NCBI GenBank assembly: GCA_963774955.1
Contig: CAVZGV010000003.1
Span: 256,771 to 320,770, forward strand
From: Candidatus Falkowbacteria bacterium
GTDB taxonomy: Bacteria > Patescibacteriota > Patescibacteriia > CAIXNZ01
DNA: 64,000 nucleotides
Reading direction: 5' to 3'
Made by a program: the position numbers and the translations under genes. A model generated the notes under the pieces. It searched no databases and was not told the DNA's origin. It saw only the letters and a program-made list of their open reading frames with translations. Shown piece by piece: positions 30,715-64,000 of this stretch (position 1 is the first letter of the stretch; each line of letters begins with the position of its first letter).

Positions 30715-30843
30715 TTATTAATCGGATAGTTAAACCACGGAATTTTCATTCATTGCCTGTCGGCAGGTTGATAATACGGATAAACTAAGGAATCCGTGTA
30801 ATCAGTGAAATTAACTCAGTGGTTTAGTAACCAATAAAAACAT

Positions 30844-31233: not shown

Positions 31234-31251
31234 ATCTAGATTATATAATAA

Positions 31252-31719: not shown

Positions 31720-31723
31720 CTAT

Positions 31724-32191: not shown

Positions 32192-32298
32192 AATAAAACA
32201 AAATTAGCTTGTACATATAAAAAATCCCTAAAATTTTAGGGATTTTTTAGTTTTAAAACATGATTTATATTTAAGCTAAAAACTGCTATAATTTAAGC

Positions 32299-35691: not shown

Positions 35692-35706
35692 TTACGAAAG
35701 TTGGAC

Positions 35707-36173: not shown

Positions 36174-36209
36174 TTATTATTTCGTGGTTCATAATAACCT
36201 AATAAAACT

Positions 36210-36577: not shown

Positions 36578-36633
36578 ATATGATATGGCCAATTTTAGCT
36601 AAGGATGCTATAATTAAAAAGTAATAAATATAC

Positions 36634-39600
36634 ATGATAAATCCAAGGAAAATCAGACAAAAAGTGGTTTTCTTGAAGTTTTTTAGTTTTAAAACTAAGC
36701 TTATTTTAAGTTTGGTTTTTGTTTTAATTATCGCTATCATCTTCTCAGTTAATTACTTTGTCCCGGTCAGCGCGGACAATTTCTTAGTGACTGAAAATTT
36801 TACCACTGATACTTTGAAAGATGCGAATGCCACTACTGGTATTTGGGACACTACTTTGAATCAAGCTCGGTTGTTAGGTAAAGATTGGATTAATATGGAG
36901 GAAACTAAAGATACTTACGGACCGTTTACAACTTTAACCGATTCTGTGTTGAATTATAATATTACTTATGATACAAGTGCAAATCCTTATATTGTTTGGG
37001 TGTCAAATGGAGTGGGCGGGGTTGGCGATGTTTATTTTACCAAATGGACGCCCGGGACAGGCTGGACAGGTATGGACTGTATCTCAGCGTATGACAATAT
37101 TTCCAGCTCCACAGCACTTTCTTCGCAGCCTAAAATAAAATTAGACGGCGCCGACGATCCGATTATAATTTGGTCTGAAAGTTCGACTTCGACTGATATC
37201 TATTTAGCTCATTGGGATAGCGGTAATAACCGCTGGGCCAATATGGCGGGTAATGCGAGTGCTCCCGAAAACATCAGCCAAGATTCAGTTAATAACACTT
37301 TTTTTACCCTGGAAGTAGATGGTACTGGTAAACCGGCCATTGTTTTTACTAGAAATGTGGGCCCAACTATAAATGATTTGTATTTTACGACTTGGAATGG
37401 CACAACATGGACCGGTGCGGACGGGGTTGATACTGATTTTAATCCTTTAATCTATGAAAACGATAAGATATCTGATTCCTCTACCAGTTATGGCAATGAA
37501 AATATTAAGTTGAGATTTAACAGTTTGAACGAACCCTATATTGCTTGGTGGCAAATAATTGTTAGTCCGACCAGAGTCTTATTTACAAAATGGACACCCG
37601 CAGTTGGTTGGACGCATATGGACGGAACTACATTAGGTTTTGAACCAATCAGCGATCTTACCAAGGTAGGTTCCCAGCCTAATTTGGAGATGGGTACTGA
37701 TGATTTTCCTTATATTACTTATGTGGAAGCTCCCGTTGGCGGTGGCCCTAGTTCAAATTTAGAAATATTATTTGCCCATTGGACCGGTTCAGGCTGGTAC
37801 GGTATGGATGGAATAGTTTTACGTGATAATGTTTCTATAAACACCAGTTCATCGCAGGTACCTCAGATGAAACTTGATGCCGGGAATAACCCCATTGTTA
37901 TTTGGCGCGATACTACTCCACCCGGAGGTGGCGCAGTTACCCAATTAGAAGTCTACTTACGCAAATGGACAGGTGTTGCCTGGACGGCCATGGATGGTAT
38001 TGCTACCTATGATAATATCTCAAATACTCCTGCCGCCAGGTCATATACTTATAATTTAGCTGTAGATAGTACGGGTGAGCCAAATCTTTTCTGGGGAGAC
38101 GGTCCTTCATCTTTGTTAAATTATTATTTCACCCGCTGGGTGGTTGGTAGTGGTTGGGAAAAAATTGACGGTACTTTAGGCCAAGATGCGGTATTGTCCG
38201 GTGCCGCGATTAATAGTTTTTCAGTTGGACCCGATGATACCCCCTATGTTTTATTTGCAGATCCACCGTCAACTGGACAGCCACAGCTGATCAAAGGTAA
38301 AGATATTTATGCGTCTACTTCTGATATTGTTTCTTTGAATATGAATACAGGTTCTGATTTCGTAGTATCGGCCAAGATTTCCGCGGCGGAAACTCTTAAT
38401 GGCCAAACAGTAAATTATTTTTTATCCAATGACGGTGGCGCTACTTGGGAGGTTGTCAGTAATAATGTGGCGCATGATTTTATTACCTCTCATGGTTTTG
38501 ATTTGCGCTGGAAAGCGGAACTGGTGACAATTTTGAATTCGGTTACACCTGTAGTTGATGATCTGGACATTACTTATAGAACAAAAAAAATATTCTGCAG
38601 TCTTTCTCCGACTTCTGTACTTCAGGGACAGCCGGTGACTATTGCAGCGACTACCAGTTTTGTGCCTGGTGCAGTTTGGGCTACGGTGGAAAAAAACGGT
38701 GAGGTTTTAAGCACGGTAACAATGAATAATGTCGGTGGCAATAACTTTAGCGTTAATTACAGTACCGCGGGAACCAATTTAGGTAGAAATGACGTGGCAG
38801 TATTTGCCTCCAATGCCACAGATACTTATGTCTGTAATCCTTCTACCGGTGTTGACTGGCAGCGGATGTCAACCAATGATATCCCTTGGGACCCACGGAC
38901 TTTTCACGGCTCTGTCAGTTTGGGAAATTATATTTATCTCTTTGGAGGTTTATCGGACAGATTTTTAAGTGATGTTTGGCGTTCTCAAGATGGTTATAAT
39001 TGGCAGCAGATGCCTGATGCCCCCTGGGCCGCAAGAGGGATGTTTGATCCTATTGTTTTTAACGACAAAATTTGGGTCATGGGCGGTCGAAGTTATGTTT
39101 ACTTAAGCTCTCCAGTGAACTACGGTGATGTCTGGTATAGCTCAGACGGCCAATCATGGACACAATCAACTAATGATCTGCCGTCATCACCTGCAGTTAC
39201 CCGCAGGACTTATGCCTCGACAGTTTTTAATAATAAATTATGGATTTCCGGCGGCAATTCAGGCGGGCCTACCAATGATGTCTGGTATAATGATGATCCC
39301 ATAACTAATGCCTGGGTTCAGGCGACACCAGCTGCCAGCTGGTCAGTTAGGACTCTTCATCAAATGGTTACTTTTGATAATAAAATGTGGGTAATGGGTG
39401 GCAATGGTCCTTTAAACGATATCTGGCATTCAACAGACGGTGTTAATTGGTATGATACTTTTTGCCAGGGAGGAGTTGATGACGGCCAAGCCTGTGTTAT
39501 TGGCGGGGATTGCGATTCAAGTTCTTGTTTGTCAGAAACAGCAGCCTGGCCTGCCAGAGTAGATTTTCAAGCCTTGGTTTTTGATGAAGATGGTAGCGGG

Positions 39601-44091: not shown

Positions 44092-44241
44092 CGGAAAAAG
44101 AAGGTTACAAACCCAGGGAAGTTAAGCCGGTTGATCTGGTTAAAAATGAGGAGATTGTCAATTTGGATGTCGGATTGAGTAAAAATTGATATCGGAATCA
44201 CCTGCCTACGCCAAGGCTTCGGCAGGCAGGCGGAAATTGAT

Positions 44242-44264
44242 TCACGAAAATACACGAAAACGAA
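44242..44264. repeat. CACGAAAA motif pair (TCACGAAAATACACGAAAACGAA)
   Basis: Third locus of the same motif family. It follows an imperfect hairpin (CCTGCC...GGCAGG, 44195-44232) downstream of giant gene 1. Confidence 0.4.
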
Positions 44265-44428
44265 TACTGGAACGAAAACTGGATTTAGTGTATTTCGTTA
44301 TAACTTTATAATTCATTTATCCAATATTAAAAGCTCCCATTATTGTGGTTGGAGGAGTTTTTATATTGGCGATTTTTATTTTGGCTAGTTTTAGCCAGAT
44401 GATATAATAAAATTGTAATCAAAGACAC

Positions 44429-47400
44429 ATGCTGAACCCAAGGAAAATCAGACAAAATATGTTTTTCTTGAAATTTTTTAGTTTTAAAACTAAGCTCATT
44501 TTGAGTTTGGTTTTTGTTTTAATTATTGTAGTTACTTTGGGTTATAATTATTTTCAATCTGTTAACGCGGAAAATGTGTCGTTTACTGAAACATTCTCCA
44601 CACTTGCTAATAAAGATGTTAATATCACAACCGGCAAATGGGATACGGTTTTGGGGCTAGCGAGATTGCTGGGTAAAGACTGGGTTAATATGGCGGAAAC
44701 AAAAGATGGCTTAGAAACCATTAGTTCCAGTGGTATCAATTACATTTACGACGTTGAATATGATTCAGCGGGCAATCCTTATATAGTGGGTATAGATAAA
44801 AGTAGGGGCAGAAATTTGCCGTTTTTTGTCAAATGGACGCCCAGTATGGGCTGGACCAATATGGCAGAAACAATTGCAGGCCAGGAAATTTTATATGATA
44901 CGGGATTTTCTGCGTCTTCCCCAGAACTTGCTTTAGATAGTAATGATAATCCCTATCTTATCTGGGGTCAGCTTATTCCACCGTCTGGATCTGAAGCGGA
45001 CATCTTTTTTACTAAATGGTCGCCCTCTGCCTGCGGCGGAGCAGGTTGTTGGACAAATATGGCGGGAACAACCGCTGGTCCGGAAGAAATTGCGCATAAC
45101 GGCTATCGTTATAATATTGTGAATGATATTAAAATTGATTCCAGCAATTATCCCCAAGTGCTTTATAGTCTTGATATGACAGGATCAAATATTCATGATT
45201 TGTTTTTTTCCAGATGGAATGGCGCAAGCTGGACCAAAGCTAATGGTATTGACGCTGACAGTGATCCTGCGACTTATGAAAGTGATAATATTACTAACAC
45301 TCCTGCTGCTGATGATCAATTGGCTGGTTTAAATTTAGTTAATGATAATCCTTATGTCGCTTGGTATGGCTTTTCAAATACAGATGTACTTTTTAGCAAA
45401 TGGACTCCCGGGTTAGGTTTGTGCGCTGATCCCGTGGGTTGCTGGACAAATATGCAGGAAACAATTTTAGGGCCGGAAAAGGTTGATCAGCCAAATGTCG
45501 TAGGTTACCCAGGCACTTATTTTTCCGCACCAAAAAATAATTTTAAAATCGCTACCGACAATAATGTTTATATTAGCTGGTCTTATGAGACTCCTGCGGC
45601 TGTACCCGGCCAGCCACTAGACGTTTATATCAGAAAAGGCATAGCAGGTGTTGGTTGGAGTCAGATTGATAATTCTCCCGGCTATACAAATGTTTCTAAT
45701 AGTGCCCTTGACAATTCAAATTTAAAGGGTTTTTCACTGGATTCAGCTAATAATCCTAATGTTATCTGGGGGGAAAGACCTGGCGGATGGGGTGGTACAA
45801 ATAACGATGTCTATTTTGCTCGTTGGAATGGTTCTTCTTGGGTAAAAATGGATGGTACTCCGGCTCCAGAAAATATAACGAATTCAGCAGATACTATTAC
45901 AGCGCCTGAATTTATTGTTTTAGATTCTTTTAATACGCCCTATGTTTTGTATTATGAATCAAGCGGAAGACAGCTAAAAAAATGGAGCGGTTCAATCTGG
46001 GGGAAGATGGATGGTAGTGCCGGATATGAATTATTAACCCCTCCTTCTGTAGCTGTAAGATCTTTGGATATAATTAACAGCAATCCTCAGTTTATCGGTG
46101 ATAATAACGTTGTCGAATCAGCATATTTTAGTAAATATCTACCGACATATAATACTACTTCAACTATTCAGTCAGTAAATGTTAGTACCGCCGGTACGGA
46201 TTTTATCAAGAGCGCAGCTTTAACCGCGAACCAAACACTTAACGGCCAAAATATTATTTATTCAATTTCAAATGATGGCGGTGCGACTTGGACAATTGTG
46301 CCAGGTACGGGCACTCTGTTAGATTTTAGTACTGCTGGCAATGATTTACGCTGGAAGGCAGATTTGCAAGGAACTTCTTCGGTTACGCCGATAATTAATG
46401 ATTTATCTCTTAGTTATCAGACCAGAAAAATCACTTGTAGTCTGACCCCAAACTCAGTTTTACAGGGACAGTCGGTGACTATTTCCGCAAGCACTGGTTT
46501 TGCGGCTCCGAAGGTCTGGGCAACTGTGGAAAAAGACGGTTCAGTTTTAAGTACCGTAGATCTTGTCGGTGGGCCTAATAATTGGAGTTATCAGTTTCCG
46601 ACTGGTAGCCAGAATTTTGGGCAAAATGATGTGGCCGTGTTTACTACAGATGGAACTGATACCTTTGTCTGCAATCCTTCAACAGGCGCTGATTGGCAGA
46701 TGATGACCAAGGAAGATATTCCCTGGGATAGGCGGTATACTCATAGTGCTGTTTCGTTTAATAATCGTTTGTTTGTTATGGGTGGGATAACTGATCGTAA
46801 TCAGAATGATATCTGGTATTCAGCTGACAATGGAGTCAATTGGACCGGTCCGGCCACAGCCGCCTGGAGTCCCAGAAGCTATTTTGGTTTGGTTAATTTT
46901 CAAGGTCAATTGTGGCTATTGGGTGGGTCATATATGGAAGACACTGCTAATGATGTCCCGAGTACTACTACTTATAATGATATTTGGGTTTCTAGTAATG
47001 GCCTTAATTGGACTCCAAGCACTCCTGCAAATGCGCCATGGATCGGACGTTTAGGTTTTGGGTCTACGGTTTATGATGGCAAAATTTGGATAGCGGGAGG
47101 TTATGATTATTTGTCCGCTACTTATATGAATGATGTTTGGTCTTTTGATGGTACAACCTGGGTAAATGAAACCACTCTTCCGACCGGACGTTATGGGCTG
47201 CAATTGGCTGCTTGGGATGAAGATGGAAGCGGACTAGAACCTGAAAAATTATGGGTTATTGCCGGCCGTAGTACAGGCGGTGTGAGGGAAGAAGATGTTC
47301 ATTCTTATGATACTATTTCTGGCTGGAATTGTGTTGCCGGTCCAGTCGCTTATGGTTGTCCGGCCGCTTCAATTCCTGCTTGGGGAGCGCCTCCAGTCGT

Positions 47401-52087: not shown

Positions 52088-52112
52088 TTTTGGATAATAG
52101 TCATTATAAAAG

Positions 52113-52135
52113 CCCCTTATTTAAGGGGTTTTTTA
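52113..52135 (+). terminator. Rho-independent terminator after giant gene 2
   Basis: CCCCTTA-TT-TAAGGGG followed by TTTTTTA. A TGGTATAAT promoter sits at 52191-52199. Confidence 0.6.
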
Positions 52136-52235
52136 TCTAAGTTTAGATAAGTTTTTGTTGTTGATAACTCTACTGAATATATATAAATTGTGGTATAATA
52201 AATACAAGTAAAAATATCTAAAATTAAAGCAAATT

Positions 52236-55200: not shown

Positions 55201-58200
55201 TACTTTATAATTATTATGATGCATTTGGTAATTATAAAGTATTTTTTTTAAGATGGGATGGTTCTTCCTGGGTAGATATGGCTGGCACTGGCAGTTACGA
55301 TCAATTTACTAATTTTTACGATGGGCAATTAAAATTTGATAGCAGTTATAACCCCCACATTGTCATGGTTGATGAAATTAACAGATTGGTGAAATTTACT
55401 CGTTGGTTTGGCGGTCAATGGTCAACCATGGCCGGCAGTCCCGGGATAGAAACTATTATTGAAAATACCGAGCCTTATTCAGCGCCTATTTGGGAATTGG
55501 ATACCTTTGATCGGCCGCGTGTTTTTTGGATGGATGAAACTGAAGGTTATGCTATTAATGCTAGGGATGTTTTTTACACTCAGTGGAATGGAAGCGACTG
55601 GGTTGATGTTTATAATAATCCAGGTTATACCAATATAACCCATCATTATGTGGCGCCCATGTTAGATTTTGATGTGGTTAAAGACGGTAATGATAATTTG
55701 CATTTGATCAACAATAAATTCGAATATAATGTAAATTTATATTATTCCAAGTTAAGCGTGCCTACTGATTATTATCGTATTGTTCAGTCCTCCGATGTTT
55801 ACCCCGGGCCATTAACCGACATTGTTAAATCAGCTACTTTAACAACTGTAACTGATAATGCCGGCGGCAATGTGACCATTAATTACGCAGTCAGTAATGA
55901 TTATGGCAATACCTGGCTACCGGCGCCGCTGGGCACGGAGATAGTTTTTAACAGCGCTCCAACTTTGAAATGGCGGGCTTATTTGAAAACCACAAATGAA
56001 ACAATTGTCCCCACCATTAATGATTTAACAATCAATTATTCTACTTTAGCACCGCCAGTCGGTCTTTATTGCGGTGATGGTATTTGTAATAATGGAGAAA
56101 TATGTACAAGCTGTTCAGCTGATTGTGGAATTTGTCCGCCTCCGCCGATTATTCTTGTTACACCCGCTGGTACATCTGATACAATCTGTTGGGATAGTAT
56201 TCCTGAAGATCCGAGCGATGTTGTTTTGCCGGTATTACCGTGTACAGCCACAAGCCCAAGCGCCATCAGCTGGAATTTTACAGACAATGCCGTTTGTGAA
56301 GCCGGTTATCGTCTTTATGACGCTGCTACAGATATCAGAATGAAATATGTAGAACAGCCGAACCTGAGCACAATCGAAGAAACGGGCTTAGCCACCAATA
56401 TCCAATACAGCCGCTATGTCACAGCATATAACGCGGCCGGTGAATCAGGTTCAAATACAGCATTAAGCTGTTTTACCCTGGCTAAAGTGCCGAATAAGCC
56501 GATCATTTTAAGCGCCAACGAAAATGAAATAATATTGCAAATAGATCCTAATGACGGTAATCCCGTGGGTACAGAATATGAAATCAAGGAACTATTGACT
56601 AATCAATTTGTTCAAGCAGACGGAACCTTTGGCTCCGGAGAAACCTGGCAGACATATGCTGCTTGGGGCGGCGACAGCGGATTAGCAGTGATTGGTGAAT
56701 TGCCAGCAGCAGAACAACCGCTCTATGAGGAACCATCTCAACAGCCGGATTTGAATGCCGCTTTTCATATTAGTTTAACCGCCGGCCAGAATTATAGTTT
56801 TGCAGTGCAGGCCAAAAACGGCGACGGCATTCCGACAGGATTTTCTTCAGCCACAGGCAGTACTTCAGGCCCAACCGGACCTGCTCCCGTATTAGCACCG
56901 ATAATAACAGCCGCTAAAGGCGTGGCTATTAATTTAGTCAGAAACAGTAATTATAATGTCAATATTTTTGCCGCTGCCCTGGCTGAAAGCGGCTTTGGCT
57001 TTAATGCCAATACCAGTAAGACAGAAAGTCTGCTGCGGGAATTTTCATTGATTTTAAACCTGCTGATCCTGATATTGCTGGGCTTTTTGTCAGGCAGTAT
57101 CATCAGCTCCTTCAGCCATCTGGGCAAAGATTTAAACTGGCAAAAAAGACTGAAACTACTGGGACAGATGTTTGTGAAAGAGCCGGCAGTAATGTTCAGC
57201 GAGCAGGCGCAGCCTGATAAAAACGGGATTTACCAGATATCATTTGAAAAACACAAGCAAAGCCAGCTCAATGCGCAAAAACACGTCAAACGAGCTTTGG
57301 GTTTAATTGCTATTAAAGCCGTAGTTTTGGTCACGCTTTTAACCGGCTTGGCCGGAGTCAATCATTTGGGCAAAGCGCAAACAGCGCCGTATGACCAGAG
57401 CGGCACAGCAGTGAATGTTGGTGATAAGCTGAGCTATATAATTGAAATAAGCAATTCAGGTACAGCCGCGGCCAATGACGCAGTAGTTATGGATACGATA
57501 GACAGCAATCTGGAAAATTTTACAGTTACCGGAATAATTAATTGTGGTACATATACTGACAAGTCAACAGCAACAGTTTTAAACGTAGACGGAGTTGATG
57601 TGGCCGAGGCATCAACCTGTGTCATTACCTATACAGCGAAAGTAAAAACAGGCACAGAAGGCAATACTATTACAAATCAGGCTTTGGCCTTGGGTCCAGA
57701 CTTTGCCACAGTGACAACGAATATAACCATTAATAGTATAAATGCTGCGCCAGCATTAGTTTGCGGGAATAATAAATTGGATCCGGGTGAACAATGTGAT
57801 CCGACAGGTTGCGCCAGCGATGAACGCTGTGTTTCCTGCCGTTGCCAGCCAATCCCGCCCGCACCAGTCTGCGGTAACAGCATAGTAGAAACAGGGGAAC
57901 AGTGCGATAATAGTGCCTGCGGAGCAGATCAGATATGCAGTAATTGCGCTTGCCAATCCGTTATCCCGCCAATCCCGCCAGTAATCCCGCCGCCAGTCAC
58001 ACCACCAGGAACTCTACCGCCAGGAACTTTACCACCAGGCACCCCGCCGGGCACTTTACCACCATCGACACCTCCGGGCATACCGTTAATTACGCCGATA
58101 ATCAGTTCAATTTCAGGCGCTATAGACCAAATATTGCCGGAACAGTTAAAGGCAATTTTGGATAATCCGCAAGTTGAACAAACGAGCCAGAATATTGTAA

Positions 58201-59099
58201 CGCCGATACTTATAGCTTTGGCGCTATTAAATACAGTGCCTTTAATCTTGGCTTTGAGTATTTACCTGTTGCCGTATCTGCATCTGCTTTTCCTGGAGCC
58301 GTTATTAATTTTGTTCGGCAAGAAGAGGAAAAAGTGGGGCGTAGTTTACAATGCTTTAACCAAAATACCAATAGATTTAGCTTTGGTCAGATTGTACCGT
58401 AAAAATGATAATATGCTGGTGCAGACGAGGGTCACGGATAAGGAAGGCAGATATATCATCATTGCCAAAGAACCCGGTAAATATTATCTGAGCGTAACCA
58501 AACCGGGATTTATCAGCCCGACCAGATATTTGAAAGATGAAAAGCAAGATACAAAATATCTGGATCTGTATCACGGTGAAGTGATTGAAGTGACAGAAAA
58601 AGATGCGGTCATCACCGCCAATATCCCGTTGGATCCAGCGGAAAAGATGGTTTTACCGATAAAAGAGGTTGTCAGAAGTTATCTGCTCAAGAACTTAAGA
58701 TTAATTATTTCCTATATCGGGATGGTCCTGGCTTTGCTGATAGTGATTATTTATCCCACAGTAATAACCATTGGAGCTTTGATTTTGCATGTTATTTTGT
58801 TCTTGATTTTCCGCAGGATGATAGTGCCGGCCAAACCTAAACGTTGGGGCATTGTTTATGATGCCGAAAACAAGGCGCCATTACATCAGGCTATTGTCAG
58901 AATATTTGATACCAGATTTAATAAATTGCTGGAAACGCAGGTGACTGACCGTAATGGCCGCTATGCCTTTTTGGTGGGTAAAAATGAATACCAGCTGTTG
59001 ACTGAAAAAGAAGGTTACAAACCCAAAGAAGTTAAGCCTGTTGACCTGGTTAAAAATGAGGAGATTGTCAATCTGGATTTGGGGTTAAGTAAAAATTAA
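52236..59099 (+). CDS. Giant cell-surface protein, paralog 3 (2287 aa). A different N-terminal anchor and ~15 W-repeat blades replace the Kelch region; the C-terminal module is shared with paralogs 1 and 2
   Basis: Continuous ORF. Repeats of type [VI]xF[TI]xWxGxxWxxMxG run through residues ~100-1500. A CxxC-rich segment (LYCGDGICNNGEICTSCSADCGIC) precedes the conserved FN3, DUF11, Cys-repeat, Pro-linker and TM/CarbopepD_reg module. Confidence 0.9.
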   Translation: MNRLKIKPLIFWRFVNEKVKLIFLGLIFILSIATVGLIIKNIIKAAPDIYSEDFTTTIFYDQENTTADWSTSIGQVSVAKEWVKSDGTKTYYENISRELYTSRNPAVVVNNSNQPYIFWENDTTGSGSYDYYFTRGNLIAEPADWQKMDGISGWENISSNPAGGPVNGKMAIDLSDKPYFVWQEANDIFFSYWTGSAWRGLQNPAASFDNLSQSAVLGYTASLPQISIDQWDRVFVAWQGNTATSNEIMVTMWDKLNPANSKWSSITGKNYCLHGSNDGTVCTDNSVCTGGGICVGYENISKTDKNSANPRLAIGTGSLPYPQLIWIENNGTYNQIVYSKWTYFSNTAFCGNSQYACWTNMAGTVKGFENISQCATFNCTYTSSDNFKLDSNGFPQLIWHTGLSSNTRLNFIHWDGSLWSGMAGLPGREIPDPTPIYNNDYKLAINQDDYPQLVFSAGSTRSALLFIHWNGSAWTGINNVPGVEVVRNFPAREPKIVVDNNNQVNLLWLDDSVDDGLNYFNVYFTKSNNNVWTRYSGSGNCTVGGALCTSDFDCSGSGYCQKIGFDNLSNTAWNNNNPNIAMAENGNLYVVWSAGDLSYTFKPEINFTYLDSVSKSWSVLRPGAESTTTLLGEKHSYATSLKIATSPLAPYSPYMMWEDDCSVSPYPTISDENQDDVCFMRWDGNNWVDMNGNLGNEEVTDNFIERRFFSKYYSPFRGSNNLLFDSLGNPYLIWVDQLSGSNNKDLNLTKWNGSSWVNMDNQRRCVYGVNAGNVCLLDRDCFDDLDLAVPRSLTGDGRCISDLCDGGVSDGYVCSRDLECMDKLNDGYCTGVENISNDPEGNYLITGDYYSHQAAVIDSADNLYLVWPEETSPGNPDDIFFTKWNGFAWVNMDGVTLGKENISNSAKVSYKPIIVFDNLANPYIIWQESPIGTYLLDPEVWLTHWDSGTNSWKSMDLSSSIEKIDVLAGGRSTINEDSVQFDGSNRPNILYNYYDAFGNYKVFFLRWDGSSWVDMAGTGSYDQFTNFYDGQLKFDSSYNPHIVMVDEINRLVKFTRWFGGQWSTMAGSPGIETIIENTEPYSAPIWELDTFDRPRVFWMDETEGYAINARDVFYTQWNGSDWVDVYNNPGYTNITHHYVAPMLDFDVVKDGNDNLHLINNKFEYNVNLYYSKLSVPTDYYRIVQSSDVYPGPLTDIVKSATLTTVTDNAGGNVTINYAVSNDYGNTWLPAPLGTEIVFNSAPTLKWRAYLKTTNETIVPTINDLTINYSTLAPPVGLYCGDGICNNGEICTSCSADCGICPPPPIILVTPAGTSDTICWDSIPEDPSDVVLPVLPCTATSPSAISWNFTDNAVCEAGYRLYDAATDIRMKYVEQPNLSTIEETGLATNIQYSRYVTAYNAAGESGSNTALSCFTLAKVPNKPIILSANENEIILQIDPNDGNPVGTEYEIKELLTNQFVQADGTFGSGETWQTYAAWGGDSGLAVIGELPAAEQPLYEEPSQQPDLNAAFHISLTAGQNYSFAVQAKNGDGIPTGFSSATGSTSGPTGPAPVLAPIITAAKGVAINLVRNSNYNVNIFAAALAESGFGFNANTSKTESLLREFSLILNLLILILLGFLSGSIISSFSHLGKDLNWQKRLKLLGQMFVKEPAVMFSEQAQPDKNGIYQISFEKHKQSQLNAQKHVKRALGLIAIKAVVLVTLLTGLAGVNHLGKAQTAPYDQSGTAVNVGDKLSYIIEISNSGTAAANDAVVMDTIDSNLENFTVTGIINCGTYTDKSTATVLNVDGVDVAEASTCVITYTAKVKTGTEGNTITNQALALGPDFATVTTNITINSINAAPALVCGNNKLDPGEQCDPTGCASDERCVSCRCQPIPPAPVCGNSIVETGEQCDNSACGADQICSNCACQSVIPPIPPVIPPPVTPPGTLPPGTLPPGTPPGTLPPSTPPGIPLITPIISSISGAIDQILPEQLKAILDNPQVEQTSQNIVTPILIALALLNTVPLILALSIYLLPYLHLLFLEPLLILFGKKRKKWGVVYNALTKIPIDLALVRLYRKNDNMLVQTRVTDKEGRYIIIAKEPGKYYLSVTKPGFISPTRYLKDEKQDTKYLDLYHGEVIEVTEKDAVITANIPLDPAEKMVLPIKEVVRSYLLKNLRLIISYIGMVLALLIVIIYPTVITIGALILHVILFLIFRRMIVPAKPKRWGIVYDAENKAPLHQAIVRIFDTRFNKLLETQVTDRNGRYAFLVGKNEYQLLTEKEGYKPKEVKPVDLVKNEEIVNLDLGLSKN
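56660..59099. repeat. Partner copy of the ~2.4 kb near-identical 3' block (see 49640-52087)
   Basis: See the partner feature. In addition, 56460-56640 matches giant gene 1 (41563-41705) rather than gene 2, so the gene is a mosaic. Confidence 0.85.
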
Positions 59100-59110
59100 A
59101 GTTTTCCACA

Positions 59111-59136
59111 AGAGCCCCGCGCTGCGGGGCTTTTTT
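59111..59136 (+). terminator. Rho-independent terminator after giant gene 3
   Basis: AGCCCCGCGCTGCGGGGCTTTTTT. A TGTTATAAT promoter sits at 59158-59166. Confidence 0.65.
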
Positions 59137-59190
59137 ATATAAAATGCCTGTATTTTATGTTATAATATATAAAGAAGGATAATTGATTTA

Positions 59191-62100
59191 ATGAACGAAA
59201 ATTTGCCAAATTATATGAGATATCTAAAAAACACTTCGGTTATTGCTCTGAGTGCTATTATAGTGTTGGTCTCTATTTTTATATTTATTTTTTTTCGTTT
59301 TCAACAGTACATAATTAGGCCGGTAAAGGGGCTGCCGTTAAATAACCCGATTATTTATGAGAATATTACTGGTGAAGTATTTGCCAGCGGTGATTTTAAT
59401 AATGATAATAAAGGTGATTTGGCGACTATCAGTTCCGGGGCTTTAAAAGTTTATTTGGGGACAGGGGCCAGTGCGTTTTCCGCTCCTTTGAGTTTGAATG
59501 TCGGTATAAGCAATCTTAATGATTTGAAAACTGCGGATATAAATAATGACGGTAATTTTGATTTAATTGTTGCAGCCCAAGGCAATACTACCATGGCAAT
59601 TTTTCTTGGCGCCGGTGACGGAACTTTTACTGCTGGTAGCGGCGTTAATATCGGGCTGGTAACAAAAAGTATTACTTTGGCCGATATAAATAATGATAAT
59701 AATGTTGATTTGCTGTATTTAGCAGATAATACTGCGAAGTTTTATTCTAGGCTCGGCAATGGCGCCGGCGCTTTCCAGGCCGCAACAGAATATACAGGGG
59801 TTAGCAACCAGAAATCTATAACCAGTGCAGATTTTAATAATGATAGTTATGCGGACGTCGCGATTATCGGTAATTCAGTCCAAATATTTATAAATGACGA
59901 TAATGGCGGATTTATTGAAGGAGCCAATTATATCCAATCAGGTTCAAAAATTATTGCCGCCGATATTACCAATGATAACTTTGTAGATTTAGTTTTTGTC
60001 GGCAGTAAGGTGGTGACATTAATCAATAAAGGGAATGCTTCTTTTATCCTGGGTGAAATTTATGATGGGAGTTCTTCTGTATACATTACGGGCACATCAC
60101 TATTTACAGGTGATTATAACAACGATGGAGAAAATGACGTCGGTGTTATTTTTAGTAATAAATTGTATCTTTATTATAACCAGAGTGTTTTATATATAAC
60201 TTATTTATCCCCGCCTGGCGTCTTTGTCGGCGAATCTGCCTTTACTTTGACTGTTAATGGCAGTGGTTTTAATAGCAATTCGATTGTCAGATTTAACGGC
60301 AATAATAAAACAACTGTTTATATAAACCCGAATCAAATAGAGGCAACGATAGCCGCCGGTGATGTCAGTGAAACTAGTACTAATGATGTTACGGTCTATG
60401 ATAGCTCCAGCGGAGTAGAATCCGTCATGAGGTTTTTTTATGTTATACCTGGATTTTTTGACGCTCAAAATTTTAGTACCGGCACTCAGCCAACCTCCCT
60501 TTACACAGCAAATTTAAACGGGGATAGTTTTCCAGATTTGGCCGTGGCTAATTCGGGCAGTAATAATATTTCCATAAAACTGGGCCGCGGTGACGGCATG
60601 TTTATACCGGCTAATCCAGAGACCATTGCTGTAAATAACCAGCCGAATTCAATCGCTGGCGGAGATTTTAACGGGGATACTTATATTGATTTGGTTGTAG
60701 CCAATAAAGGTTCTGATAATTTAAGCGTATTGATGGGTAACGGCTTGGGTGGATTTACTGCGGCGACGGCTATCACAGCCGGCAGTCAGCCGGAAAAAGT
60801 CATTGTGACTGATTTTAATAATGACGATAATCTTGATCTGGCTGTTGCTTGTTCCGGCAGTAATAATATAAAAGTATTTTTAGGTAATGGCCTGGGCGGG
60901 TTTGCGCAGTCTGAAGCTGATGCTGTCGGTACTCAACCGCGATCCTTAGCTTCTGCTGATTTTAATAAAGACGGATTTAAAGATTTGGCGGTCGCTAATT
61001 ATGGTAGTACATCCATTTCAATTTTATTAGGTAATGGTAACGGTACCTTCATGGCAGCAGATCCAGCGACAATTACGACTGGCTTACAACCTATTTCAGT
61101 GGCTGACGCTGATTTTAACGGCGATAATTTTCCTGACCTAATTGTGGCTAATTACGGTGAAAATACAGTCAAGATTTTTCTTGGTGATGGCGAAGGTCAT
61201 TTTGCAGAATCAGCTGAATTAAATACTGATATTCAACCGCGGGTTGTCAGTACACAGGATTTTAACGGTGATGATATTGATGATTACGCGGTAGTAAACT
61301 ATGGCGCAAATAATATGATCATGGTTTTAGGCAATGGTGACGGTACTTTTTATTCAGCGATTAATTATGATTTGGGGACTCAACCACTAGGTATAATAAA
61401 TGGTGATTTTAATAATGATAGCAGAATAGATTTTGCGGTCGCTAATAATGGTAGTAATAATATATCCATCATTTTAAAAAGAAAAATAATTGATATTAAT
61501 ATTTTAAAGCCTGAAAATCGTTATAATGTCAATTTATGGCCTAAGGGGCTTGTAAGTGGCGATATTGATGGCGATGGTTATAAAGATTTAATGGTGGTCA
61601 ATGAAGGACCAAATACTGTTAGTCTTTTACATAATGATAGAGATGGAACGTTCACAGCCCTATCAGAATTTGACGTAGCTGATAGACCTATTGGTGTAGA
61701 TTCTGCTGATTTAAACGCAGATGGCCGTGAAGATATGGTGGTAACAACTGGTAACAGTGCTAATTATTCTGTTTTTTTAGGTAAACCAGACGGAACGTTG
61801 CCAAATGTAAAAAATTATAACCTGCCGACTTATCCAAATGGTTTCACGGCTGGTGATTTCAATGGTGACAGTATTTATGATGTCGCCGTTTCTCTACAAC
61901 CGACAGCGGAAATTGGTCAAATAGGTGTTTTTTTAGGAAATGGTGATACAAGTTTTACTGCTGGTGATACTTATACTGTAGGTAGGTGGCCGAGTGGGGT
62001 AACATCGGGTGATTTTAATAATGATAATATATTAGATGTAGCTGTCTTTAATAGTTATATTGGAAATATTTCCGTGTTGTTGGGAAATGGTGACGGAACA

Positions 62101-64000
62101 TTTCAAGCTCCTCAAGATTTTGATTTAGGTGCTGACCCTGCAACCGGTGATAACGCAGTTATCAGTATTGATATCAATAATGATAATAATTTAGATATAA
62201 TAGTATCCAGATTCTGGCACGGAGGTGGTGATCCAAATTATAATCGTTGTCTGTCTTATAATTGTTACACTGCACATCCATATCCTATATGTGCAACTTT
62301 AACTTGCCCCGTATTGAGTGGAGATGGAATTTTTATTTTATTGGGAGATGGTGACGGTACTTTTCAGAATTATCAGGGCTATGGCGATTTAATAAATTCT
62401 CATTTTGTTATCGCCGCTAAAATTAATAACGATAATTACTATGATTTAATCACTAGCAAGGTGGATGATAATCAACTAGTTGTTTTATTTAATAATACAA
62501 CTGGGGGTTTTGATTCTGAAGATATAGTAACTTATGATTTTACTAATCCTTACCCCGCTATAGCTGCAAGTGGTGACCTTGATAATGATGGTGATAATGA
62601 TCTTGCTGTCGCTACAGCTTTAGAAAACAAATTGTATATAATGATGAATGATGGTTCGGGATCATTAACAACTAATGAAGTAAAATCTATTGATATTTCA
62701 CCTTCTAATTTAAGAATTATTGATTTTAATAATGATGGATTTGAAGATATTGTAATATCAACCCAAAATGCAACAAATGAGGTTCCTGTATATTTGAATA
62801 ATGGTGATGGTACATTTAGCAACCCTGTTAATTATTCTGGTGCAGCGGATACGATGAGTATGGAATTTTTTGATAATAACAATGATGACATTGTTGATAT
62901 TATTTCTTTAAGTAATTCAAAACAATTAGTTTCTACTTTGGTTAGTAATGGTGATGGAACTTTTGATACCCCAAGGATTTTTGGCGGCGCTGATGGTCCG
63001 ATTTCTCATGTTTTGCATGATGATTTTAATAATGATGGTAACTTGGATTTATTGGTGGGGCCTAGAGTTGAATTTGGAGATGGAACAGGGCAATTTTCAT
63101 CGGCTGTTGATTCGGTAGAAGGAATGTCTTTTTATTCTAATACCAGTGGTGATTTTGATGAAGATGGAGATATTGATTTAGCCGGACTTGATTGGCCAGG
63201 TATGGACAGAATGGCGGTTTCTTTTAACGATGGCAATGGAAATTTCGGTAGCCCGACATATTATTCTGTTTCTTCTTTACCTTGGGACATTATTTCGGCT
63301 GATTTTAATAATGATGGTCATCTGGATTTAGCGGTGGCTAGTCAATATGCCGCTCAAATTTCTATGTTTATGGGTAACGGAACTGGTTATTTTAGTAATG
63401 CAGTACCAGCAAATTTATATTATAGTGTTCAGTCGTTAATTAATGAAGATTTTAATGGCGATGGCAGGGAAGATCTGGTTGTCTTGAACAGTCCTAATTA
63501 CTTATCAATTTTATTGGGTAACGATAATTTAACTTTCCAGCCGCCCGTTGATTATAATGTGGGTAGCGGACCGTATCAGGTAATTACTGATGATTTTAAT
63601 AATGATCAGCGACCCGATCTGGCATCTACAAATACTGACCTTTCTAATATCTCAGTATTTTTAGGCGATGTTATTACCGCACCGCAAATTTATCATCCCG
63701 GGGTTGGGGTGATTGGAACTCCCAGCAAGCCGGTTGAATTTGATTGTCAGGCTTTATCCGGCCAAACAATACGTTGGTCATTTGATAACATCTCAGCCGA
63801 TGCTATCGGCTTTAATTTATATGCCACTGATGGATTAATTTACAGTACTGAGGGTGAAGATATTACGGATTTAAATTATATTGATGAATCAGACTTGGAG
63901 CCAAATACTTTATATGAGGATAGATTTGTCAGGATATTTAATAACAATGGAGAATCTCCCGCATCTAATGATGCCAGTTGCTATACCCTGGTTAATGAAC
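59191..64000 (+). CDS. Giant surface protein 4 (partial, >1600 aa, runs off the window). Domains: N-terminal TM, more than 20 FG-GAP/VCBS (integrin-alpha-like) repeats, an IPT/TIG-like domain, and an FN3-like module related to paralogs 1-3
   Basis: The frame from the ATG at 59191 stays open to the window end. I checked codons at 60481 and 63961. Repeats of type TGxxPxSxxxADFNGDGxxDLAVANxGSNNISVLLGNGxGxF. The end reads ...NNNGESPASNDASCYTLVNE, which resembles ...YNAAGES...ASCYTLAKV of paralogs 1-3. Confidence 0.8.
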   Translation, partial: MNENLPNYMRYLKNTSVIALSAIIVLVSIFIFIFFRFQQYIIRPVKGLPLNNPIIYENITGEVFASGDFNNDNKGDLATISSGALKVYLGTGASAFSAPLSLNVGISNLNDLKTADINNDGNFDLIVAAQGNTTMAIFLGAGDGTFTAGSGVNIGLVTKSITLADINNDNNVDLLYLADNTAKFYSRLGNGAGAFQAATEYTGVSNQKSITSADFNNDSYADVAIIGNSVQIFINDDNGGFIEGANYIQSGSKIIAADITNDNFVDLVFVGSKVVTLINKGNASFILGEIYDGSSSVYITGTSLFTGDYNNDGENDVGVIFSNKLYLYYNQSVLYITYLSPPGVFVGESAFTLTVNGSGFNSNSIVRFNGNNKTTVYINPNQIEATIAAGDVSETSTNDVTVYDSSSGVESVMRFFYVIPGFFDAQNFSTGTQPTSLYTANLNGDSFPDLAVANSGSNNISIKLGRGDGMFIPANPETIAVNNQPNSIAGGDFNGDTYIDLVVANKGSDNLSVLMGNGLGGFTAATAITAGSQPEKVIVTDFNNDDNLDLAVACSGSNNIKVFLGNGLGGFAQSEADAVGTQPRSLASADFNKDGFKDLAVANYGSTSISILLGNGNGTFMAADPATITTGLQPISVADADFNGDNFPDLIVANYGENTVKIFLGDGEGHFAESAELNTDIQPRVVSTQDFNGDDIDDYAVVNYGANNMIMVLGNGDGTFYSAINYDLGTQPLGIINGDFNNDSRIDFAVANNGSNNISIILKRKIIDINILKPENRYNVNLWPKGLVSGDIDGDGYKDLMVVNEGPNTVSLLHNDRDGTFTALSEFDVADRPIGVDSADLNADGREDMVVTTGNSANYSVFLGKPDGTLPNVKNYNLPTYPNGFTAGDFNGDSIYDVAVSLQPTAEIGQIGVFLGNGDTSFTAGDTYTVGRWPSGVTSGDFNNDNILDVAVFNSYIGNISVLLGNGDGTFQAPQDFDLGADPATGDNAVISIDINNDNNLDIIVSRFWHGGGDPNYNRCLSYNCYTAHPYPICATLTCPVLSGDGIFILLGDGDGTFQNYQGYGDLINSHFVIAAKINNDNYYDLITSKVDDNQLVVLFNNTTGGFDSEDIVTYDFTNPYPAIAASGDLDNDGDNDLAVATALENKLYIMMNDGSGSLTTNEVKSIDISPSNLRIIDFNNDGFEDIVISTQNATNEVPVYLNNGDGTFSNPVNYSGAADTMSMEFFDNNNDDIVDIISLSNSKQLVSTLVSNGDGTFDTPRIFGGADGPISHVLHDDFNNDGNLDLLVGPRVEFGDGTGQFSSAVDSVEGMSFYSNTSGDFDEDGDIDLAGLDWPGMDRMAVSFNDGNGNFGSPTYYSVSSLPWDIISADFNNDGHLDLAVASQYAAQISMFMGNGTGYFSNAVPANLYYSVQSLINEDFNGDGREDLVVLNSPNYLSILLGNDNLTFQPPVDYNVGSGPYQVITDDFNNDQRPDLASTNTDLSNISVFLGDVITAPQIYHPGVGVIGTPSKPVEFDCQALSGQTIRWSFDNISADAIGFNLYATDGLIYSTEGEDITDLNYIDESDLEPNTLYEDRFVRIFNNNGESPASNDASCYTLVNE

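Follow-up and report, generated by a model that had tools for sequence, protein, structure and literature searches.

The window, meaning the whole 64,000-nt stretch of DNA analyzed here, contained four very large genes (G1 to G4) arranged head to tail on the plus strand from 36634 to 64000, of which G1, G2 and G3 were complete and G4 was cut by the window end (Table 1). The first-pass annotation had described four tandem giant genes of 2.3-2.55 k aa; three complete ORFs of 2287-2552 aa agreed with this description, and the fourth was incomplete. G1 and G2 were paralogous over their full length, with 48% identity. The end of G1 was shifted by a 1-nt deletion (GG to G, in a G-run) at about 44063/44064 inside the second CarboxypepD_reg domain, and G1 kept the homologous stop codon (44188-44190) in the other frame. 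No RNA genes were detected by Rfam and tRNA scans of the window.

The extended -10 box TGNTATAAT (TGnTATAAT) occurred at 17 sites in the window against 5.1 expected, and one such site was located 20-37 nt 5' of each of the four start codons. Terminator-like hairpins with T-runs were found after G2 and G3, and the hairpin 3' of G1 was weaker than these. The proposal that every gene has its own promoter and terminator was thus upheld for the -10 box at all four genes and for the terminators of G2 and G3, and less clearly for that of G1.

Table 1. Positions of genes, domains and regulatory elements of the giant-gene array in the window.
Feature	Position	Strand	Description
Extended -10 box TGCTATAAT	36606..36614	+	ends 20 nt before G1 start codon
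G1	36634..44091	+	ORF call, 2485 aa as it stands (frameshifted end); signal peptide; WxGxxW blades aa 66-564; Kelch blades aa ~731-1496; C-module from aa 1544
Frameshifted G1 end	44064..44190	+	last 37 codons of second CarboxypepD_reg domain conserved in other frame
Extended -10 box TGATATAAT	44400..44408	+	ends 21 nt before G2 start codon
G2	44429..52087	+	ORF call, 2552 aa
WxGxxW / BNR_4-like blades (G2)	44558..46039	+	8 copies, aa 44-537
Kelch blades (G2)	46655..48997	+	at least 9 with DVWxSxDGxxW; inserted CxGGxxxGxxCx5Cx4C loops
C-module (G2)	49148..52084	+	aa 1574-2552
FN3 pair (G2)	49226..49978	+	fn3 28.9 bits vs cut-off 25
TM1, K/R-rich loop (predicted cytoplasmic), TM2 (G2)	50003..50353	+	
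DUF11 / CLIPPER domain (G2)	50390..50728	+	predicted extracellular
Two CGNxxIxxGEQCD cysteine repeats (G2)	50750..50941	+	12 Cys altogether
Proline-rich PPGT linker (G2)	50942..51106	+	low pLDDT
TM3, conserved amphipathic helix (PYLxxLFxxP), polybasic KKRKK cluster (G2)	51155..51316	+	
First CarboxypepD_reg, transthyretin-like (G2)	51320..51625	+	predicted cytoplasmic
TM5-TM6 helical hairpin (G2)	51647..51811	+	both flanks K/R-rich
Second CarboxypepD_reg (G2)	51830..52084	+	predicted cytoplasmic
Terminator-like hairpin + T-run after G2	52113..52135	+	
Extended -10 box TGGTATAAT	52191..52199	+	ends 37 nt before G3 start codon
G3	52236..59099	+	ORF call, 2287 aa; 15-16 WxGxxW / BNR_4-like blades aa 65-1135, inserted 4-Cys loops; C-module from aa 1309 (nt 56160)
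Terminator-like GC hairpin + T-run after G3	59113..59136	+	
Extended -10 box TGTTATAAT	59158..59166	+	ends 25 nt before G4 start codon
G4	59191..64000	+	ORF call, at least 1603 aa, runs off window

At the N-termini of G1, G2 and G3, a hydrophobic segment preceded an AXA-like site (VSA, VNA, IKA), as in an export signal. A sortase-type anchor, defined by an LPXTG motif, a hydrophobic stretch and a basic tail at the C-terminus, was not found; no LPXTG-type motif occurred near any C-terminus, and no sortase gene was recognised among the scanned ORFs of the window. Behind the export signals, Kelch repeats were identified by Pfam in G1 (E 6e-33) and G2 (E 3e-36), the Kelch models (Kelch_1, Kelch_6, Kelch_KLHDC2_KLHL20_DRC7; cut-offs 50 and 20.1) reaching 114.4 and 73.6 bits in G1 and 125.3 and 89 bits in G2, and no Kelch match was given by Pfam in G3. 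At least nine DVWxSxDGxxW blades with inserted 4-Cys loops were present in each of G1 and G2, in line with the Kelch-type blades and Cys loops read from the sequence at first. The count of WxGxxW blades in G3 likewise matched the earlier estimate of about 15 W-x-G-x-x-W-x-x-M repeats. The same repeat was also strong at the N-termini of G1 and G2, with eight copies each at aa ~100-540 and a weak leading copy near aa 44-66. Because G1 and G2 also carried these eight repeats, the N-termini were not wholly different propeller sets as first claimed.

The identity of the WxGxxW blades was examined with BNR_4 (PF15892, cut-off 27.3 bits), a sialidase-like family with a propeller of 6-7 blades. Its score came slightly short of the cut-off both in G1 (27.2 bits, aa 1-700) and in G3 (24.6 bits, aa 1-1300), and BNR_4 was present in 14 of 19 distant homologues. 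The AlphaFold model of the G3 blades was all-beta, with low to moderate confidence overall (mean pLDDT 60.8 for the N-terminal model), and its best matches were propellers of GH145 enzymes, putative neuraminidases and sialidases and PL25 ulvan lyases together with the lectin CV39L, at TMt ~0.55. Such neighbours, and the BNR_4 domains of the homologues, would fit enzymes that are tethered to the surface and process glycans (sialidase-, GH145- or polysaccharide-lyase-like), serving scavenging instead of adhesion. This reading was considered improbable, since identity to the neighbours was only 8-13% at that TMt and with high rmsd, the lectin scored as well as the enzymes, BNR_4 stayed slightly below its cut-off, and sixteen tandem blades with inserted Cys loops are unlike a single enzyme propeller.

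G4 was built from FG-GAP/VCBS repeats, in agreement with the first reading, with 398.6 bits for FG-GAP_3 over 22 stretches and 191.4 bits for FG-GAP by Pfam. An N-terminal TM anchor and a TIG / CoaZ-like domain were also detected. The last ~100 aa of G4 aligned to the start of the C-terminal module described below (37% identity to G1 aa 1559-1649). FG-GAP repeats were found in two relatives, P0002 and P0031, the latter uniting them with the full module. From these ~100 residues and the composition of P0031, G4 would also bear the conserved tail. A metagenome scan with G4 returned only generic FG-GAP proteins with 26-45% identity, none of them tail-bearing.

A C-terminal module (C-module) of ~940-980 aa was common to G1, G2 and G3, and the modular, shuffled architecture noticed earlier was evident in the differing ectodomains set on this same module. 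Its order was FN3 pair, TM1, loop, TM2, DUF11 (now CLIPPER), two Cys repeats, Pro linker, TM, CarboxypepD_reg, TM hairpin and CarboxypepD_reg. The sharing, the order and the positions of hydrophobic segments bore out the ~900-aa module of the first-pass annotation, and domain searches, named there as a check, placed Kelch, FG-GAP, fn3 and CarboxypepD_reg above cut-off. Of the two TM helices proposed before the first CarboxypepD_reg domain, one was retained as a membrane helix and the second is more likely a conserved amphipathic helix. The fn3 assignment (28.9 bits, E 1.4e-6) was obtained when the 276-aa segment was scanned alone, and scored just 20 bits in whole-protein scans (cut-off 25). 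CarboxypepD_reg (PF13620) matched two stretches in G2 and G3 and one in G1, with 43.8-60.5 bits against a cut-off of 32.3, and was supported by the fold. The Cys repeats had been called Myxococcus-type; the motif resembles that family, but the scores fell below threshold for both TIGR02232 (13.4 bits, E 0.051, cut-off 20.8) and DUF4215 (PF13948; 13.7 bits, E 0.082, cut-off 27), and the call was not sustained. PF13948 was carried by some relatives of the tail family.

DUF11/CLIPPER (PF01345; TIGR01451) was assigned by HMM and a CnaA-like fold, with 40.1, 25.0 and 25.5 bits in G1, G2 and G3 against a cut-off of 24.6. CLIPPER is an extracellular domain type, and many DUF11 domains lack the isopeptide bond (PMC12617251). 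The Cys-rich repeats are likewise of a kind found outside the cell, which fits export of the proteins. The isopeptide-bonded subset is defined by K715, N806 and the catalytic D748 in 9ifr; by eye, the first strand of the CLIPPER segment was without the isopeptide Lys. A PDB sequence search with this segment gave no usable alignment, and 9ifr was not aligned.

In the last 335 aa of the C-module, Pfam and NCBIfam matched only the two CarboxypepD_reg domains, and neither collection held a model for this tail as a unit. An exhaustive search with the tail recovered 4348 cluster representatives; the proteins reached 3858 aa in length, and 1651 of the clusters had E<=1e-30. The tail was found at 30 loci in MAGs of Parcubacteria, Falkowbacteria, Buchananbacteria, Uhrbacteria, Magasanikbacteria, Paceibacter, Moraniibacteriota and Saccharibacteria. 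Among 112 members inspected, in proteins 262 to 1687 aa long, 80 had the end of the tail no more than 40 aa from the C-terminus. The ectodomains above 212 tail matches contained FN3, HINT, beta-helix, FG-GAP, Kelch or Ig domains. The motifs KKRKKWG, DxxGRY, LYHGE, NIPLDP and NKLLET were invariant or nearly invariant in 91 sequences. When family members were defined by a full-length match of ~310-335 aa at or near the C-terminus together with the conserved motifs, the tails of G1, G2 and G3 belonged to the family with 558-610 bits, a score that is partly circular because the model was made from these three tails plus P0001 and P0003. Judged from these sequence matches, the last 335 aa define a large family without a name that is widespread in CPR bacteria. 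The initial impression that the C-module combination matches no known family was therefore revised: the combination is not a one-off, and its last 335 aa represent a CPR-wide family lacking its own Pfam or NCBIfam model. Literature searches found no described TM/CarboxypepD_reg module in CPR; a 2026 preprint on the Pam pilus deals with different proteins. In 10 related loci (L011-L017, L019, L023, L024) a gene for a ~330-aa secreted, TM-anchored protein lay directly 5' of the tail gene. This gene was absent from the window, and its product therefore cannot be an obligatory partner for the subfamily of the window.

The membrane topology of the tail was evaluated by charge, composition and structure prediction. 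Averaged over 231 tails, the net charge of the 15-residue flanks was -1.3 before TM3, +4.8 after TM3/4, +3.5 before TM5, +0.2 in the TM5-6 turn and +4.1 after TM6. The K+R content was 16-19% in the CarboxypepD_reg domains and the TM1-TM2 loop, compared with 11-15% in the cytoplasmic proteins of the window and 3-5.5% in the ectodomains, and the family-wide medians were 12.9 and 15.8% for the CarboxypepD_reg domains versus 4.5% for the ectodomains. In the AlphaFold2 model, TM3/4 formed one continuous helix with confidence of only about 70 and TM5/6 formed a hairpin, and the CarboxypepD_reg domains had pLDDT >90. The C-terminal extensions of relatives were K/E-rich and coiled-coil-like, without a further TM segment. 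The charge flanks, the composition and the model suggested that both CarboxypepD_reg domains are cytoplasmic. In this arrangement, TM1 would lead into the cell and TM2 out of it again, with a short basic loop between them in the cytoplasm; beyond TM2 there would be a second small ectodomain of CLIPPER, two Cys repeats and the Pro linker. TM3 would then cross inwards, and behind it an amphipathic helix at the membrane interface and a polybasic clamp would precede the first CarboxypepD_reg domain in the cytoplasm, to which the TM5/TM6 hairpin would return the second one.

CarboxypepD_reg, CnaB and transthyretin-like sandwiches are extracytoplasmic nearly always, and those of the CarboxypepD_reg and SdrD-B or CnaB type are classical extracellular stalk domains. 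All structural neighbours found were surface or periplasmic domains. An alternative topology was also weighed, in which the proteins are anchored in the way described but TM3/4 and TM5/6 are both hairpins and the CarboxypepD_reg domains form extracellular stalks close to the membrane; the polybasic motifs would then attach, on the outer side, to anionic lipids or to polymers of the wall. TM3/4 could also be a hairpin because its hydrophobic stretch of 36-40 aa with a central conserved Pro is similar to the TM5-P-TM6 unit, and this length suffices for a short one; moreover, the two TM-Pro-TM-basic-WG-CarboxypepD_reg units resemble a duplication, of which the second is clearly a hairpin. This topology would leave about five conserved K/R after TM3/4 and about four in each TM5/6 flank outside, against the positive-inside rule in the 231 sequences. 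It is also at odds with the composition of both domains, which is of the cytoplasmic type and unlike that of the ectodomains, with the continuous TM3/4 helix and with the C-terminal extensions of relatives, which look cytoplasmic. On balance the outside placement was regarded as rather unlikely, although a serious competitor, and the cytoplasmic placement was preferred.

The C-modules of G2 and G3 were 95.6% identical over 978 aa, and those of G1 and G3 69% over 942 aa. At the nucleotide level, the 3' 2907 nt of G2 (49181-52087) aligned without gaps to G3 56193-59099 with 95.2% identity and 139 differing positions. The dS of the G2/G3 module was 0.14 and the dN 0.024, and the resulting dN/dS of 0.17 showed purifying selection at the sequence level; dS was 0.68 at the 5' edge and dropped to 0.02-0.1 deeper inside the module. 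This near-identity is consistent with gene conversion or a recent transfer of the module. G1 and G2 were compared by identity profile instead of dN/dS, since with ectodomains just 29-46% identical their dS would be saturated; the tail was 85-92% identical. The array may have evolved by the joining of new N-terminal ectodomains to the same C-module, with gene conversion keeping the C-modules similar and the promoters remaining separate for each gene.

Comparative genomics, also named as a check at the outset, showed a conserved position of the locus in relatives and a variable copy number. The order of pilin (type IV pilus), prepilin peptidase, LigA, HPF and tail-bearing giant genes was common to the window and three related loci (L002, L006, L007), and syntenic loci contained from one to at least four tail genes. 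The closest homologues were found in MAGs of Parcubacteria, Falkowbacteria and Buchananbacteria, in whose syntenic loci LigA was 65-74% identical. These sequence relations fit an origin from a CPR (Parcubacteria/Buchananbacteria-like) bacterium.

Repeats of 2.9 kb at 95% identity could also arise from assembly, in which case the array would be partly an artefact, with a chimeric join or a wrong copy number at the G2/G3 modules and a sequencing error as the G1 frameshift. Contigs of related MAGs break within these genes, the G1 indel sits in a G-run, and lepA in the window is broken into at least eight ORF fragments in differing frames. Against this, a collapse would not predict 139 differences that are graded and codon-biased; the giant ORFs were otherwise uninterrupted over ~27 kb; tandem tail-bearing genes occurred independently in six loci (L001, L005, L027, L029, L030, L033); and both G3 (P0123) and G1, with the identical truncated end, are public gene calls. 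An artefact of this kind was thus judged very improbable.

Taken together, the array is probably a set of paralogous, Sec-exported giant envelope proteins of a CPR bacterium, with variable propeller ectodomains, a C-terminal membrane module and CarboxypepD_reg domains on the cytoplasmic side. The ectodomain would be long, acidic and K/R-poor, made of beta-propellers with disulfide loops in the blades and then the FN3 pair, and would be of BNR_4/sialidase-like plus Kelch type in G1 and G2, BNR_4-like alone in G3 and FG-GAP in G4. Outside the cell, the variable propellers may bind ligands that are probably glycans or structures on the surface of host or partner cells, and the conserved tail would anchor the protein in the membrane and offer two beta-sandwich domains to a putative cytoplasmic partner. 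Based on the domain types, a role in host attachment is plausible.

The separate promoter of each paralogue, the conserved anchor under variable ectodomains and the copy number varying among relatives would also suit structural components of the envelope or of an S-layer-like coat, or variable surface proteins that shield the cell from phage and predators or act as decoys, with the array serving surface variation and no host attachment. This explanation appeared unlikely. Kelch, BNR and FG-GAP propellers are typical ligand-binding modules, the Pfam and NCBIfam domain scans revealed neither an S-layer homology domain nor a known S-layer family, and comparable CPR giant proteins were tied, by inference, to host contact (PMC8080830). 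The ligand-binding envelope proteins were retained as the preferred reading. As a tentative extension, made with clearly less confidence, the 335-aa tail may be an undescribed, largely CPR-restricted anchor and coupling module which wires hundreds of giant ectodomains, through its two cytoplasmic CarboxypepD_reg domains, to a common intracellular partner such as sorting, positioning or signalling machinery, and may act as an outside-in receptor scaffold for contact between episymbiont and host.

In the array, one strongly conserved membrane module thus carried very different giant ectodomains, and over 1600 protein clusters distributed among CPR classes contained its core. Much of bacterial diversity belongs to the CPR, whose cultivated members grow attached to host cells; their means of holding on to these hosts are, to our knowledge, largely unexplained. 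The tail is an easily searched marker by which the surface-exposed "cargo" proteins encoded in a CPR genome can be catalogued, and if both beta-sandwich domains do face the cytoplasm, it would constitute an unrecognised link from surface binding to the cell interior.

Giant proteins of 1392-4163 aa, predicted to be membrane-located and containing DUF11, integrin-type and fibronectin domains, have been reported in the CPR predator Vampirococcus lugosii (Moreira et al. 2021) and proposed for host recognition and attachment (PMC8080830). Compared by description, both sets are giant CPR membrane proteins with DUF11 and fibronectin domains, but V. lugosii belongs to Absconditabacteria, another CPR lineage, and the available text of that report describes neither a C-terminal TM/CarboxypepD_reg module nor a tandem array sharing one. 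Giant1-5 of Apilactobacillus kunkeei are likewise consecutive genes for very large extracellular proteins (3000-8000 aa), occupying a sizeable share of a small genome, and differ from the window's genes in phylum, domain content and size (PMC12863079). The fibrillar adhesins and MSCRAMMs of monoderm bacteria (SdrD, pilins and CLIPPER-stalk adhesins; PMC12617251) share the modular binding head, the beta-sandwich stalk and the C-terminal anchor, and these proteins, with stalks of CLIPPER/DUF11, SdrD-B/CnaB-like and FN3 domains, were structural neighbours of the window's domains. In contrast to them, the window proteins had a polytopic membrane anchor in place of LPXTG and were without tandem stalk repeats, and by sequence and model their CnaB/transthyretin-like domains are probably on the cytoplasmic side. 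The match to the SlaB-type S-layer anchor covered one sandwich domain only; in SlaB the sandwiches are extracellular and a single TM lies at the C-terminus, and the window showed no evident partner that could form a lattice. Integrins are eukaryotic heterodimers with single-pass subunits and short tails, and no homology was found beyond the FG-GAP repeat. As a functional analogy only, they resemble the present proteins in combining an FG-GAP propeller ectodomain (G4, P0002, P0031), membrane helices and a conserved part predicted to be cytoplasmic, and it may be speculated from this likeness that outside binding is coupled to the cell interior in an integrin-like manner.

The four giant genes annotated in tandem (G1-G4) were recovered as three complete ORFs and a fourth that continues past the window end; public gene calls exist for G1 and G3. 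An extended -10 box, TGNTATAAT, was found upstream of all four start codons, with 20-37 nt between the end of the box and the start. This box had 17 copies in the window, where 5.1 would be expected by chance, and since most of the remaining copies lay directly upstream of genes, it looks like the usual promoter element of the organism. A GC-rich hairpin with a T-run was located 3' of the HPF gene, of G2 and of G3, whereas the hairpin 3' of G1 was weaker.

Features of the window and their coordinates
Feature	Position (nt)	Strand	Description
CAP-domain protein	6065-7303	+	412 aa, predicted secreted
Ig-like/HYR protein	7237-9330	+	697 aa, predicted secreted; Bact_surface_Ig-like, HYR and dockerin-like matches
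Region lacking long ORFs	15623-18738
lepA (EF4)	16577-18451	+	broken into 8 or more ORF fragments that overlap and differ in frame
GC-rich stretch	~20000-28000		GC 0.44-0.49; flanks 0.36-0.39
ACACGAAAA-type motif	20531
ORF without Pfam match	20633-23134	-	833 aa
VIT-VWA protein	24407-27274		955 aa
Type IV pilus cluster	28657-33039		PilM, two 155-aa ORFs (second pilin-like), prepilin peptidase
ACACGAAAA-type motif	35700-35725
PD-(D/E)XK gene	35766-36137	+	123 aa; PDDEXK_3, GxxExxY-type
ACACGAAAA-type motif	36150-36185
G1	36634-44091	+	complete ORF, 2485 aa
1-nt deletion in G1	about 44063/44064		GG to G
Homologous stop of G1	44188-44190		in other frame
ACACGAAAA-type motif	44240-44275
G2	44429-52087	+	complete ORF, 2552 aa
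G3	52236-59099	+	complete ORF, 2287 aa
G4	59191 to at least 64000	+	ORF open at window end, at least 1603 aa

Kelch, FG-GAP_3, fn3 and CarboxypepD_reg, covering the propeller, FN3 and CarboxypepD_reg types proposed from the sequence alone, were all matched in domain searches. Kelch propellers were detected by Pfam scan in G1 (E 6e-33) and G2 (E 3e-36), with at least nine DVWxSxDGxxW motifs per protein in their blades, and G4 had 22 FG-GAP_3 stretches, in line with the FG-GAP/VCBS repeats noted for it, together with a TIG-like domain. With an iterated HMM, the W-x-G-x-x-W repeat was counted 15-16 times in G3 (aa 65-1135), but also eight times at each N-terminus of G1 and G2 (aa ~100 to ~540), in agreement with BLAST matches of about 25% between these regions; the propeller sets thus differ between paralogues only in part. 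Small four-cysteine loops (CxGGxxxGxxCx5Cx4C) were inserted in propeller blades of all three paralogues, of Kelch type in G1 and G2 and BNR-like in G3. Pfam BNR_4 was present in most distant homologues of the W-x-G-x-x-W repeat, and the window proteins scored 27.2 and 24.6 bits, just under the 27.3-bit cut-off. The AlphaFold2 model of G3 aa 39-1238 was all-beta (mean pLDDT 60.8; 85-92 over model residues 810-1060), and its best PDB matches (TMt ~0.55) were mostly 6-7-bladed sialidase-like, GH145 and PL25 enzymes and the lectin CV39L. That the ectodomains are tethered glycan-processing enzymes is an unlikely alternative to a role in attachment. Glycans or proteins are the usual ligands of Kelch, BNR-like and FG-GAP propellers. 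From domain types, export signals and anchoring, G1-G4 are predicted to be surface-exposed binders.

The domain order annotated for the shared C-terminal module of G1-G3 was reproduced by hydrophobicity and alignment: FN3 pair, hydrophobic segment, ~60-aa loop, hydrophobic segment, CLIPPER (formerly DUF11), two Cys repeats, PPGT linker, long hydrophobic stretch, KKRKKWG and CarboxypepD_reg, double hydrophobic segment, KPKRWG and CarboxypepD_reg. DUF11 was matched in each of G1-G3, CarboxypepD_reg in two stretches of G2 and G3 and one of G1, and fn3 rose above the cut-off (28.9 vs 25 bits) when a 276-aa segment was scanned by itself. The two CGNxxIxxGEQCD repeats had been called Myxococcus-type; TIGR02232 and DUF4215 matched them only at E 0.05-0.08, too weakly to place them in that family with confidence. 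Module identity was 95.6% between G2 and G3 (978 aa) and 69-72% between G1 and the other two (~940 aa). In G1, the frame changes 14 codons ahead of the annotated stop through the 1-nt deletion, which is a recent mutation or else a sequencing error; the other frame still has the remaining 37 codons and the homologous stop in conserved form. Since the last ~100 residues of G4 in the window align to the module start (37% identity) and the distant relative P0031 joins FG-GAP repeats to a complete TM1-to-end module (33.6% over 717 aa), G4 probably has this module as well.

The G2 and G3 modules had 2907 nt in common at 95.2% identity without a gap, with dS 0.14, dN 0.024 and a ratio of 0.17; dS was 0.68 across the first 300 nt and dropped to 0.02-0.1 downstream of them. 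This pattern fits purifying selection combined with gene conversion, or with a recent transfer of the module to another N-terminus. G1 and G2 were paralogues along their full length. Their first ~148 aa were 58% identical, most of the ectodomain 29-46%, the FN3 pair 73-87%, TM1-loop-TM2 32%, CLIPPER 52% and everything from the Cys repeats onwards 85-92%; the promoters and 5' ends of the two genes were alike too (74.5% over 330 nt).

The last 335 aa of the module (the tail) were used as search profile. One genome per species was scanned, and 30 loci were found in MAGs labelled Parcubacteria, Falkowbacteria, Buchananbacteria, Uhrbacteria, Magasanikbacteria, Paceibacter, Moraniibacteriota and Saccharibacteria, with the match C-terminal in proteins of about 560-2400 aa and two tail-bearing genes on several related contigs. 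A word-indexed search returned 212 matches below FN3/Pur_ac_phosph_N, HINT, beta-helix, FG-GAP, Kelch, Ig-like and other domains, and in 80 of 112 proteins no more than 40 aa separated the end of the tail from the C-terminus. An exhaustive search, whose profile also included N-terminal columns of the relative P0003, reached E<=1e-3 for 4348 cluster representatives and E<=1e-30 for 1651 of them, the longest protein measuring 3858 aa; the best-scoring stretch ended in tail positions (about 630-963 of the profile) for nearly all of the 150 matches listed. The combination in the module had been noted to match no known family; its tail recurs across CPR bacteria. The longer module (TM1, loop, TM2, CLIPPER) was confined to 22 of 249 tail-family proteins. 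Pfam and NCBIfam hold no description of the tail except its two CarboxypepD_reg domains, its source names being "hypothetical" or "carboxypeptidase regulatory-like domain-containing", and full-text literature searches found no paper describing tail or module. In ten loci (L011-L017, L019, L023, L024), BLAST with the L011 member (7231-8193; signal peptide, C-terminal TM) revealed a ~320-350-aa beta-rich neighbour, directly upstream of the tail gene in most and downstream in L024. Its cluster spans 12 loci, no homologue was found in the window, and it may serve that tail subfamily as partner or chaperone.

Basic flanks of membrane segments face the cytoplasm (the positive-inside rule). In an alignment of 231 tails, the first hydrophobic stretch had an acidic 15-residue flank on its N-terminal side (mean net -1.3) and about five K/R in the 15 residues behind it (net +4.8), while the second, double segment had basic flanks (+3.5 and +4.1) and an uncharged central turn; by this rule the first would cross once, from out to in, and the second would be a hairpin with its ends inside. 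The AlphaFold2 model of G2 aa 1850-2552 (mean pLDDT 74.7, both CarboxypepD_reg domains >90) displayed the second as helix-turn-helix but the first as one continuous 48-residue helix, so that the two TM helices annotated before each CarboxypepD_reg domain would probably hold at the second position only. In the family alignment, the first stretch began as a ~20-residue helix rich in Ala, Val and Thr and continued into a conserved, partly polar motif, PYLxYLFTQPxLLL, which looks interfacial rather than membrane-spanning. Both CarboxypepD_reg domains and the TM1-TM2 loop contained 16-19% K+R and 17-19% N+S+T+G; K+R was 11-15% in cytoplasmic proteins of the window, and the ectodomains had 3-5.5% K+R, 34-37% N+S+T+G and a pI near 4.2. 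Family-wide, median K+R was 12.9 and 15.8% in the two CarboxypepD_reg domains vs 4.5% in upstream ectodomains. The main rival is that both hydrophobic units are hairpins and all domains lie outside, CarboxypepD_reg included, as such sandwiches are normally extracytoplasmic and the structural neighbours of these domains were all surface or periplasmic. Charge, structure prediction and composition are three independent observations that all point to cytoplasmic CarboxypepD_reg domains, in agreement with the C-terminal extensions. These reached at least 25 aa past the second CarboxypepD_reg in 70 of 231 relatives and, among those examined, consisted of a Pro/Ala-rich linker, then a K/E-rich coiled-coil-like segment (P0043, P0045, P0144, P0150, P0156, P0157) or repeated K(I/V)PWELQxLQK-type motifs (P0091, P0179, P0191, P0201, P0207); no further hydrophobic segment was present in these. 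Most likely, the signal peptide would be cleaved (predicted AXA-like sites VSA, VNA and IKA in G1-G3) and the large ectodomain placed outside, followed by TM1, a basic cytoplasmic loop and TM2, a small second ectodomain (CLIPPER, Cys repeats, Pro linker) and TM3, after which both CarboxypepD_reg domains would be cytoplasmic with the membrane hairpin between them.

Upstream of the array lay, among others, genes for an ABC transporter, CorA, Pta/AckA, MurJ, RecJ, the VIT-VWA protein, PilZ, PilM, pilins, prepilin peptidase, LigA and HPF, a ribosome hibernation factor. When the locus was compared in related genomes, the order pilins, prepilin peptidase, LigA, HPF, tail-bearing giant gene recurred in L002 (Buchananbacteria MAG), L006 (Parcubacteria MAG) and L007 (a third MAG), with LigA 65-74% identical to that of the window. 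L010 had a single giant gene at the site, L001, L005 and L006 no fewer than two each and the window at least four; related contigs often ended inside giant genes. With gene order recurring and giant-gene number differing, the array is best read as having expanded at a site that is conserved, in a genome of the CPR; partial mis-assembly of the array is an unlikely alternative. The type IV pilus cluster lies directly upstream of LigA, HPF and the giant genes, and its neighbourhood is conserved in the same three loci. Between LigA and HPF, the PD-(D/E)XK gene is flanked by ACACGAAAA-type motifs in inverted orientation, a motif found again after G1 and once further upstream (4 copies vs 0.68 expected). 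As the syntenic L002, L006 and L007 had no ORF of at least 90 aa there, the gene with its flanking motifs may be a small mobile insertion. Elsewhere, the broken lepA, either a multiply frameshifted pseudogene or local assembly errors, explains the region lacking long ORFs; the GC-rich stretch, which holds the 833-aa ORF and the VIT-VWA protein, may be acquired DNA; and the tail was absent from the Ig-like/HYR and CAP-domain proteins.

For another CPR bacterium, a role in host attachment has been proposed for giant membrane proteins that combine DUF11, integrin-type and fibronectin domains (PMC8080830), and a cultivated Saccharibacterium has adhesin-like surface proteins that are essential (PMC11665869). 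Considering these reports and the domain types, host attachment is the most plausible putative role of the array proteins, a structural or variable coat being one alternative. Tandem giant adhesin-like genes in CPR bacteria are a kind of feature already known. What appears new is that the conserved tail constitutes a very widespread, mainly CPR family without a Pfam or NCBIfam model of its own, that it is placed at or near the C-terminus below highly diverse ectodomains, and that both of its transthyretin-like (CarboxypepD_reg) domains are predicted to face the cytoplasm.
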